From contig CM000431.1 of NCBI GenBank assembly GCA_000165345.1, positions 608,001-672,000 of the forward strand: a stretch of DNA of 64,000 nt. The letters are read 5' to 3'. A program made the translations under genes and the position numbers. Shown here in pieces: positions 980 to 44,231 of the stretch; the stretch's first letter is position 1; every line of letters begins with the position of its first letter. Below the pieces are notes generated by a model. The model was not told where the DNA came from. It searched no databases and saw only the letters and a list, made by a program, of their open reading frames with translations.

Positions 980-1373
980 TTAATAATGACTTTTATTATT
1001 GAAAAACAGCACTGTTAAATATCTATTTAATGTTAACCTCTCAAATTAGATTTAAATTAACATACCTTCCAGAAACTTGAAAACCAGAAAGCTGTTTCAG
1101 CGCACTTTTTGCATCCTCAATCTCATCATATACTACAAATGCTGTGCCCTTTGTATCTTCACCTACACCTCTATTTCAGACTCTTCATGAACAAGAAATT
1201 TTGTTAGCCTTACCTTCTTATTTGTCTAATTGTTCCATGTCTCCCAAAAATGTCGTAGAGATCGGTAGAAGAGATATCATATGGAAGTTGCCTAAGGTAA
1301 ATAATAGATGAATTTAAAACAATGCATTTTACATTTCGTACCTTACATATAGAATTCGGCTATTATTAGACAT
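980..1373 (-). CDS. SF3B6: Splicing factor 3B subunit 6 (SF3b14a/p14). Four exons: complement(1342..1373, 1214..1291, 1066..1170, 980..1022).
   Basis: Hand-spliced product: [85 protein letters not shown]. It aligns without gaps to the p14 RRM (RILYIRNLPY...IRQIR.G....GTAYVVY.DI.DAK.A...LSGF.V..RYLVVLYY). The three introns are 50, 43 and 43 nt, with donors GTACGA, GTAAGG and GTATGT and acceptors TAG, TAG and TAG. Confidence 0.6.
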
Positions 1374-1631
1374 TGAGTAGTTTAAACTAAACAAAATCGG
1401 ATAATGCCTTAGTAATATATTCTTAATGTTATAAAAGTTACCTTAAATAATACTATTATATTGCCATAGCTTAAAATTAATGTCAATAATAGTAATAGTT
1501 CAAATATAGGCGGTGTGTAAGTAGCGCTTTCCTACACACAATTTTACTCGCGCGTGCAACGTAGAAGTTATAATATTGCGGAATGTCGCACCATCGATTT
1601 CCTCTAATCCTCATCTAAGGATAATTTCAAG

Positions 1632-43012: not shown

Positions 43013-43401
43013 TCTAAAAATTATGCAAGTAAAAAAATCAGGTAAAAAAAATTCCAAAAAACTGCGCCAAAACAAGCGCCAAATAAAGATCTGAAGAACT
43101 AATTAGAAACAAAAAAAAAAATAAAGAAGTGGACAGCATCAAAAGTAATTAAACATTAATATTGTACAGACACATTTATGTATTTAGCTTAAAATAATAC
43201 TCGATTTTCGAAATTTTGATTTATGAGTTTCTATCCTTAAATTTATATTTAAAAATAAACAAAATATGGTAAATATCAAACTCAAGATTTTATATTTAGT
43301 TTAAGATTGAAATTGTTGGTTCACTTTTTATTCTAGTTGAAATTCAAAGAAAAAATGTAAAATTAGTTTGCGCGCGTAGAATTTAGTCGTTACTTTTTAG
43401 A

Positions 43402-44231
43402 ATGTTTTTCAATAATCACAAAGAAAAGATATCATCTGAATTGGTAAGTTACTGCCTATCAAATTTGGGTTATTGTAATTTCTGTAGCTTAAGAATATAG
43501 GGAAGGATGGCATTTCTATTGAACTAACAAATATTGAACCATACATTATTAAAGATTTGATGCAATCATTCATTTACACTGAGGGTAAGTCGGACAACTA
43601 GATATAACGAATAAAATAAATTGATGTAGATATTAATACCACCAAACAACGAAATTCCAATTTTCCGAAGTTTCAGTTTAGTTTTTCTAAGGGTGACAAT
43701 TTTAATAGTCAATTATACGGCGGCTGTCCGAGCTGTGGTAATTCGTATGACTTCTTGTTTTTATTAGATGCTTTTGAGAACGAGTACACATCATCGTCTC
43801 ACAATTTGATTGAAAACCATTATTTGAGATGCAAAATATGTAATTACCGATTTTTGAAATTACACAATCATAATTCTTCAGATTCTACAATTAATACTAA
43901 TAGTAATTCTTTTGAGAAGAAGCGCATTTATATAACAGGTATTAGAAAATCGTTATGTTTTGGAACTAACAATAAGTGGTGGGCAAAGTCTATTAGCGTT
44001 GGGAAAAGAATAGAAAAAGAGTCAGATAATAAGTCAGGGAAATCCAATAGTGTTATTAGGGTTCTTGATGCTATGCATAAAAAGAAGGCTCCTAAAATCC
44101 AGGAAATTTGTCCTGAATGCTCACATAACGAGGCATTCTTTACTCAATTCCAGGCTAGATCTGCAGATGAGGGTACTACAGTCATGTATGAATGTTGTAA
44201 ATGCCAGCATCGTAGGGTTATTAATAATTAA
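43402..44231 (+). CDS. RNA polymerase small subunit with a C-terminal TFIIS-type zinc ribbon (RPC11/RPA12/RPB9 family) and an N-terminal extension. Three exons: 43402..43443, 43488..43584, 43630..44231.
   Basis: The track ORF (43755..44231) ends ...CPECSHNEAFFTQFQARSADEGTTVMYECCKCQHR, a TFIIS-type ribbon closest to RPC11. Upstream in the same frame sits the first ribbon, GGCPSCG...CKICNY. That frame has no ATG before an in-frame TAA. Two canonical micro-introns of 44 and 45 nt (both GTAAGT...TAG) connect it to the ATG at 43402. An optional in-frame 30-nt intron at 43738..43767 is ambiguous. Confidence 0.5.

Follow-up and report, generated by a model that had tools for sequence, protein, structure and literature searches.

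Micro-introns of 41-50 nt in nine genes of a Cryptosporidium parvum chromosome 3 window

Evidence for the micro-introns

This analysis of a 64,000-nucleotide (nt) stretch of contig CM000431.1 (assembly GCA_000165345.1, positions 608,001 to 672,000 of the forward strand, hereafter the window) showed that 22 GT-AG introns, all of 41-50 nt, interrupt nine genes between window positions 1023 and 43629. The window belongs to chromosome 3 of Cryptosporidium parvum, and these micro-introns are almost certainly spliceosomal introns of the common U2 type (GT-AG), close to the shortest that a spliceosome can process. All 22 are recorded in the public IOWA-ATCC annotation and are thus already known. The nine spliced products are indeed letter-for-letter identical to deposited C. 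parvum IOWA-ATCC proteins (SF3B6, QOY42581.1; GAA1, QOY42583.1; RRP15, QOY42587.1; 3-ketoacyl-CoA reductase or KAR, QOY42589.1; a membrane protein of 133 amino acids (aa), QOY42590.1; PP4R3, QOY42592.1; a CorA/Mrs2-like protein, QOY42594.1; COQ2, QOY42597.1; and an RPA12-type subunit, QOY42607.1), and the introns of that annotation are, according to its authors, 100% supported by RNA-seq (Baptista et al., 2022, PMC8744675).

The window aligned by BLAST with CP044420.1, chromosome 3 of C. parvum IOWA-ATCC (GCA_015245375.1), at 100% identity over 19,824 and 21,722 bases and at 99.996% identity over 23,127 bases, stretches that together cover window positions 1-51558, and with C. hominis GCA_001483515.1 at 97.6% identity; these two assemblies are identified as C. 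parvum IOWA-ATCC and C. hominis 30976 by Baptista et al. (2022, PMC8744675). Protein names and the locus tags cgd3_23xx and CPATCC_0012xx assign the window to chromosome 3. With about 32% G+C, the sequence is AT-rich, and its eukaryotic genes are closely spaced, one of them encoding a ribosomal protein of the S13/S18 family. Pfam scans of its long open reading frames (ORFs) detected PDE, a Gaa1 fragment, Nup98-96, adh_short fragments, PP4R3, UFD2, two UbiA fragments, a TFIIS-type zinc ribbon and RPB1.

Introns were searched for as exhaustive chains of GT..AG segments, with 30-120 nt allowed, the only input being the annotated start and stop of each coding sequence (CDS) and the length of its protein. 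Deposited CDS spans, minus the lengths of their products, implied intron totals of 136, 133, 89, 182, 42, 43, 95, 169 and 89 nt for the nine genes, and no intron length for the other genes of the window. A single chain was obtained for each of seven genes, three for the CorA-like gene and eight for COQ2; in these last two, the member with canonical splice sites was chosen from the solution list, and the chosen member proved identical to the deposited protein. A generic scan for GT..AG segments bridging open frames had also been tried; it was dropped, as it returned chance hits and in-frame segments inside long ORFs, and lost short exons.

The rebuilt introns measure 50, 43, 43, 46, 44, 43, 43, 46, 43, 48, 47, 47, 42, 43, 46, 49, 43, 44, 41, 41, 44 and 45 nt (mean 44.6, standard deviation 2.4). 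All 22 display the U2-type ends, GT at the 5' side and AG at the 3' side. The donor is GTAAGT in 11 of them, GTAAGC in three and GTGAGT in two, while GTACGA, GTATGT, GTTGTT, GTAAAT, GTAAGG and GTAAGA each occur once; the canonical GT[AG]AG[TC] form is found in 16 of the 22, position +5 is G in 20, and the exonic side reads AAG, for a consensus AAG/GTAAGT. At position -3 of the acceptor, T was found 15 times, C five times and A twice, hence YAG ends with AAG on two occasions, and the introns are T-rich, with about 74% A+T. A first-pass annotation of the window had proposed 19 introns in eight genes: these introns are real, the count being three introns and one gene short, with two "hypothetical" genes rather than one. 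Its range of 41-50 nt was exact, its list of majority and degenerate donors was recovered in full, and its gene names agreed with Pfam scans and PDB alignments. It had also described RPB1, Nup98-96, UFD2 and PDE as free of introns, and these four are indeed single uninterrupted ORFs, with an annotated CDS length of 3 x (residues + 1), RPB1 (54449-60136) however lying beyond the span of 980-44231 to which that statement was attached.

The donor motif GT[AG]AG[TC] is not enriched in the window (43 and 49 occurrences on the two strands, versus about 47 expected), so that the evidence for the introns resides in restored reading frames and in homology. In exon 3 of KAR, a 45-nt in-frame GTGAGT..TAG segment (17786-17830, minus strand) encodes conserved residues (..ESENITIQCHTPLL..) and is evidently not removed; splice motifs alone are thus insufficient to define an intron. 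The nine spliced products contain no internal stop, and the UbiA, adh_short, Gaa1, Rrp15p and RRM Pfam profiles run continuously across 12 junctions. Retention would cause a frameshift for 19 of the 22 introns and an in-frame stop for each of the three whose length is divisible by three, a low number for such a set (P = 0.035 for so few, with n = 22 only). The first-pass annotation had attributed the scattering of fragments over different frames to lengths that are nearly or exactly multiples of three; this does not hold, and frame-shifting introns are the real reason.

Several observations weigh against the reading as ordinary spliceosomal introns. Transcript support for these introns is the statement of the annotation authors. 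Five introns (GAA1 intron 1, RRP15 intron 1, RPA12 introns 1 and 2, and that of the 133-aa gene) are situated near protein ends that are not conserved (N- or C-terminal), where the backing comes from deposited models and the sole possible chain, and additionally from a conserved acceptor in the 133-aa gene. Six donors are weak, above all GTTGTT. Finally, the branch-site signal is marginal, a YTRAY element with its A 8-22 nt from the intron end being found in 11 of 23 sequences versus 6.2 +/- 2.1 in shuffles (P ~0.03); where present, in about half of the introns, the YTRAY-like element stands 10-18 nt before the 3' end. Published work found no clear branch point in C. parvum (PMC2483917).

Some of the ORF breaks might instead reflect gene decay, through frameshift or nonsense lesions, or errors of gene prediction. 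COQ2 is indeed a stop-riddled pseudogene in C. ubiquitum, and deposited models of the same loci differ between annotations. Such an origin is nevertheless very improbable, as every break in C. parvum coincides with a GT..AG segment of 41-50 nt, the excised genes give complete, gap-free matches to conserved families, and the breaks share codon and phase with distant species. An origin as minor-spliceosome (U12-type) introns or as non-spliceosomal insertions, for which no supporting point was found, has a negligible probability: no donor out of 22 matches the U12-type motif [AG]TATCCTT, all 22 introns are GT-AG with U1-type donors, and a length of 41-50 nt is too short for group I or group II ribozyme folds, which counts against the non-spliceosomal alternative. 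For the U2-type introns retained here, a span of 41-50 nt would have both splice sites paired across the intron itself (intron definition), near the minimum workable span, and this would explain the tight bunching of lengths. Excision restores nine full-length proteins, retention leaving a frameshift or a stop, and ORF-based callers therefore see fragments or nothing.

Structure of seven intron-bearing genes

The SF3B6 (p14) gene (980-1373, minus strand; 85 aa, four exons) was missed entirely by ORF calls. Its spliced product aligns with human SF3B6/p14 without a gap over residues 5-81 (E = 1.5e-25), through all three junctions despite the weak donors GTACGA, GTAAGG and GTATGT, and matches the RRM_1 profile contiguously at 1-69 of 70. 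Its three introns, which form a unique chain and fall inside this alignment, are all in phase 2 and end in TAG: intron 1 (1292-1341, 50 nt, GTACGA), intron 2 (1171-1213, 43 nt, GTAAGG) and intron 3 (1023-1065, 43 nt, GTATGT).

The GAA1 gene, for a subunit of the glycosylphosphatidylinositol (GPI) transamidase (4637-6923, minus strand; 717 aa, four exons), yields a spliced product that matches Pfam Gaa1 contiguously over positions 7-418 of 497. Intron 1 (6849-6894, 46 nt, GTAAGT..TAG, phase 2), in the unconserved N-terminus, is given by the unique chain and by deposited models; the junction of intron 2 (6137-6180, 44 nt, GTAAGT..TAG, phase 1) falls within both the alignment to human GPAA1 (residues 112-246) and the Pfam match, and intron 3 (5970-6012, 43 nt, GTAAGC..CAG, phase 2) is given by the unique chain and the Pfam match.

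The RRP15 gene (11410-11912, plus strand; 137 aa, three exons) matches Pfam Rrp15p at 22-129 of 140 after splicing. Both of its introns stem from a unique chain: intron 1 (11435-11477, 43 nt, GTAAGT..CAG, phase 1), for which the same model is deposited in C. tyzzeri, C. hominis and C. meleagridis, and intron 2 (11594-11639, 46 nt, GTAAGT..TAG, phase 0), which is also covered by the Pfam match. In the PP4R3 gene (20558-23186, minus strand; 861 aa, two exons), the EVH1 domain, which aligns with PDB 4wsf, begins in exon 1 (RRVKLYEVN..GTG); the single intron (22952-22994, 43 nt, GTAAGC..TAG, phase 0) follows from the unique chain and this EVH1 alignment.

The gene for the RPA12-type RNA polymerase zinc-ribbon subunit (43402-44231, plus strand; 246 aa, three exons) encodes a C-terminal ribbon whose best PDB match is Schizosaccharomyces pombe RPA12. 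Its chain is likewise unique. Intron 1 (43444-43487, 44 nt, GTAAGT..TAG, phase 0) is also present in deposited models; retention of intron 2 (43585-43629, 45 nt, GTAAGT..TAG, phase 1) would introduce an in-frame stop, and the corresponding junction is crossed by a 208-aa ORF (P0043) on a 725-nt ENA contig.

The COQ2 gene, for 4-hydroxybenzoate polyprenyltransferase (31250-32435, plus strand; 338 aa, five exons), matches Pfam UbiA contiguously at 1-245 of 250 once spliced, with E = 9e-46 versus 1.7e-7 and 2.2e-19 for the ORF fragments. All four introns share position and phase with those of the intact C. andersoni orthologue (L024 4959-5722), which were solved by hand. Intron 1 (31559-31601, 43 nt, GTTGTT..CAG, phase 0) corresponds to one of 64 nt in C. 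andersoni, and its junction, DSK/VERTKNRPL, aligns without a gap to the archaeal UbiA 4od4, in a stretch that also includes junction 2. Intron 2 (31657-31700, 44 nt, GTAAAT..TAG, phase 1; 65 nt in C. andersoni) is separated from it by exon 2, of 55 nt, which is conserved in C. andersoni. Intron 3 (32053-32093, 41 nt, GTGAGT..TAG, phase 2; 69 nt in C. andersoni) interrupts the same Trp codon (TG/G) in both species, and intron 4 (32182-32222, 41 nt, GTAAGT..AAG, phase 0) has a 71-nt counterpart at the same position. Elsewhere in the genus, the COQ2 orthologue of C. ubiquitum is a pseudogene with many in-frame stops (L022 5122-6250), a remnant which agrees with the loss of ubiquinone synthesis reported for that species (PMC5146892), and no tblastn hit for COQ2 was obtained in C. 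ryanae (L023).

The CorA/Mrs2-like membrane protein, with a GMN motif (gene 27278-28779, plus strand; 468 aa, three exons), is named "Magnesium transporter" by UniRef, and no Pfam family was found for it at E <= 0.01. Intron 1 (28205-28250, 46 nt, GTAAGT..TAG, phase 0) has positional counterparts of 49 nt in C. ubiquitum and 50 nt in C. ryanae. Intron 2 (28558-28606, 49 nt, GTAAGA..AAG, phase 1) has a 47-nt GTAAGA..AAG counterpart in C. ubiquitum and is absent from C. ryanae, the genome of which encodes SVITGIFGMN uninterrupted. The deposited C. ryanae model contains a 65-nt intron (L023 3170-3234) that cuts a C-terminus which aligns straight through, and its splice sites appear to be mis-set.

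KAR, its neighbouring gene and the eIF3j leader

The KAR gene (17450-18519, minus strand) has five exons. Its deposited protein, whose 281 aa are the first 281 of our model, is labelled "partial" and ends at 17492 without a stop codon. The chain search gave no solution with this end coordinate, and extension to the stop solved it: reading on to the TAG at 17450 added 13 residues, for a protein of 294 aa ending in ..YIRERALKKKI. This exact 294-aa sequence was not in the protein collection; conservation of its C-terminal exon (17450-17539) extends to KARs from Toxoplasma, Eimeria, Plasmodium, plants and oomycetes, which end in a similar way. The spliced product matches Pfam adh_short contiguously at 2-193 of 195, and the intron positions are shared with C. 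ubiquitum, C. felis and C. ryanae. Intron 1 (18270-18312, 43 nt, GTAAGC..TAG) is in phase 0. Intron 2 (17956-18003, 48 nt, GTGAGT..TAG, phase 2), retention of which would bring an in-frame stop, is attested by the adh_short profile and the sister-species positions, and intron 3 (17681-17727, 47 nt, GTAAGT..TAG, phase 2) by the chain, KAR homologues and the same positions. Intron 4 (17540-17586, 47 nt, GTAAGT..CAG, phase 0) is matched in position by a 45-nt intron in both C. ubiquitum and C. felis, and once it is removed ..QLLI continues into ANMIPRPIWNK.., a segment that can be aligned with KARs from other phyla. The C. felis KAR model contains a 76-nt intron (L020 5038-5113) that deletes RDRGAILCIG, the true intron there being likely of 46 nt.

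Next to KAR lies the gene for a Cys-rich, single-pass membrane protein (18591-19034, minus strand; 133 aa, two exons). Its intron (18631-18672, 42 nt, GTAAGT..CAG, phase 2) falls in an unconserved region; C. ubiquitum, C. felis and C. ryanae have retained its donor, together with a proximal acceptor 41-46 nt away. Models deposited for five sister species (C. hominis, C. meleagridis, C. ubiquitum, C. felis and C. ryanae) fuse the two genes into one product of 380-398 aa by means of an intron of 168-214 nt that starts from the same donor (L019 4363-4576, L020 4351-4561, L021 4318-4485). In C. parvum, the 133-aa gene and KAR could accordingly be a single gene, joined through a 203-nt intron (18470-18672, minus strand) with the same donor, the 42-nt intron then being a minor or alternative 3' choice. 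The distal acceptor TTATTTCTCTTGCTCAACAG is strong and preserves the frame, KARs elsewhere carry an N-terminal hydrophobic segment that a stand-alone KAR would be without, and the two CDSs are just 71 nt apart. By contrast, all four species compared show a good acceptor 41-46 nt after the donor, followed by a short basic tail and a stop; the spacer carries the conserved motif CCTGCCGCAATGA; and a conserved ATG in the spacer opens an in-frame MN[YF][LI]S.. peptide, which would be unexpected within an intron. The RNA-seq-curated IOWA-ATCC annotation, moreover, has two genes, and its authors caution that read-through yields false fusions (Baptista et al., 2022). A single fused gene thus appears unlikely, and the conserved features of the spacer favour two genes; the distal acceptor may serve as an alternative 3' splice site.

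A candidate 23rd micro-intron was found in the leader of eIF3j (32581-32625, plus strand; 45 nt, GTAAGT..AAG), 11 bases upstream of the annotated ATG; none of the deposited C. parvum CDS models examined includes it. In C. ryanae and C. andersoni, the first intron annotated for eIF3j (46 nt and 63 nt, respectively; L024 6514-6576 in C. andersoni) has the same position and phase. In these species, as in C. ubiquitum, it follows a 13-nt first exon that contains the start codon, namely ATG-NNN-AAY-TGG-G in C. ubiquitum and C. ryanae and ATG GAT CAT TGT A in C. andersoni; in C. parvum, the ATG of this exon is replaced by AGC. To judge from this layout, 32581-32625 is most likely a leader intron, which CDS models do not show. 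An N-terminal coding extension from the ATG at 32529 (235 aa), in frame in C. parvum, was considered and rejected as conserved coding sequence, because C. tyzzeri has a run of A shorter by one base, which disrupts the frame, and because the extension is found in no database protein. GTAAGT..AG segments were also observed in the leaders of the CorA-like gene (27205-27254, plus strand, 50 nt), of PDE (1517-1564, plus strand, 48 nt) and of a gene for a 1201-aa protein (49792-49853, plus strand, 62 nt). Donor, length and acceptor of the CorA-like segment are conserved in C. ubiquitum, and the three segments may be introns of 5' untranslated regions.

The length class and its consequences for annotation

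The class of 41-50 nt is not universal in C. parvum, since long introns adjoin the micro-intron genes: an AAA-ATPase gene, with its first exon at window positions 1-759 (minus strand) and a 671-aa product (QOY42580.1), has introns of 128 and 211 nt just beyond the left edge of the window (L006 1527-1737 and 2058-2185). Short and few introns are established for Cryptosporidium (PMC4637869, PMC2483917), older annotations of C. parvum listing 213-688 introns with a mean of 82-99 nt, a median of 61 nt (2004 set) and 84% GTAAGT donors (PMC2483917, PMC4637869). The introns of the window share with these sets the GT-AG termini, the dominance of GTAAGT, the AT- or T-richness and a weak branch signal; by contrast, all 22 are below the published median, and GTAAGT accounts for 50% of donors versus 84%, as might be expected if the introns missed in 2004 were the shortest and weakest ones. 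With the introns of the IOWA-ATCC annotation, the correspondence is complete, these being the same objects, apart from the 13 additional residues of KAR and the candidate intron at 32581-32625. Nine intron-bearing genes among about 36 in the window is a typical share, compared with the approximately 20% given in recent sister-species annotations (PMC5146892).

The lengths of orthologous introns hint at a preferred length specific to each lineage. In the five compared, those of C. andersoni measure 64, 65, 69, 71 and 63 nt versus 43, 44, 41, 41 and 45 nt in C. parvum, at identical positions and phases. Narrow classes of minimal introns occur elsewhere, at 42-52 nt in the nucleomorph of Guillardia theta and about 25 nt in Paramecium; lengths there are likewise tight and near a lower limit, while the preferred length and the organism differ. 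The deficit of 3n lengths in the window and the in-frame stops within its 3n introns add to this likeness. Each Cryptosporidium lineage may, we tentatively suggest, keep a narrow intron length of its own, ancient introns having been resized in a coordinated manner throughout the genus by a change in the span that the spliceosome measures; in addition, the eIF3j leader may hold a relic micro-intron, whose upstream ATG was lost in the C. parvum lineage while the intron was kept. This idea has somewhat less than an even chance of being right. As a taxonomic clue, which the first-pass annotation had seen in it, the length class is lineage-specific but not exclusive, given the 63-71 nt of the C. 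andersoni orthologues and the 128 and 211 nt of the C. parvum AAA gene. Its description of the host genes as short housekeeping genes was loose, GAA1 and PP4R3 encoding 717 and 861 aa; the median product is 294 aa in genes with introns versus 414 aa in those without, a difference that is not significant (P = 0.13). Its observation was otherwise correct, its interpretation essentially so, and the feature is ordinary for the organism.

The effect on ORF-based annotation was evaluated from public Logan contigs of this sequence, whose prokaryote-style gene calls confirmed that such calling fragments or misses these genes. SF3B6 and RRP15 were missed entirely, and the other seven genes were fragmented (GAA1 into 460 + 232 aa, KAR into 104 + 72 + 81 aa, PP4R3 into 68 + 724 aa, the CorA-like gene into 314 + 53 aa) or reduced (COQ2 to 118 aa, RPA12 to 125 aa). 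Proteins of the 2004 Iowa II set were likewise shortened: COQ2 to 118 aa, the CorA-like protein to 314 aa, RPA12 to a partial 203 aa and KAR to 234 aa. In several sister-species annotations, long predicted introns merge neighbouring genes: the 133-aa protein is joined to KAR, COQ2 to eIF3j, and SF3B6 to the AAA gene. Among C. hominis TU502_2012 models, P0212 (721 aa) combines SF3B6 and the AAA ATPase, and P0224 (531 aa) combines COQ2 and eIF3j; these fusions are evidently false and made via predicted long introns.

Knowledge of splicing is unchanged by these results, and the two small corrections, to the C-terminus of KAR and to the leader of eIF3j, will serve curators locally. The broader meaning is one of caution. 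About a quarter of the genes of the window, among them those for a splicing factor, a GPI transamidase subunit, an enzyme of the ubiquinone pathway and an RNA polymerase I subunit, are not readable from ORFs alone, and the older reference, together with several sister-species annotations, still truncates, omits or wrongly fuses them, which leads to errors in pathway reconstructions and in claims of "missing genes".

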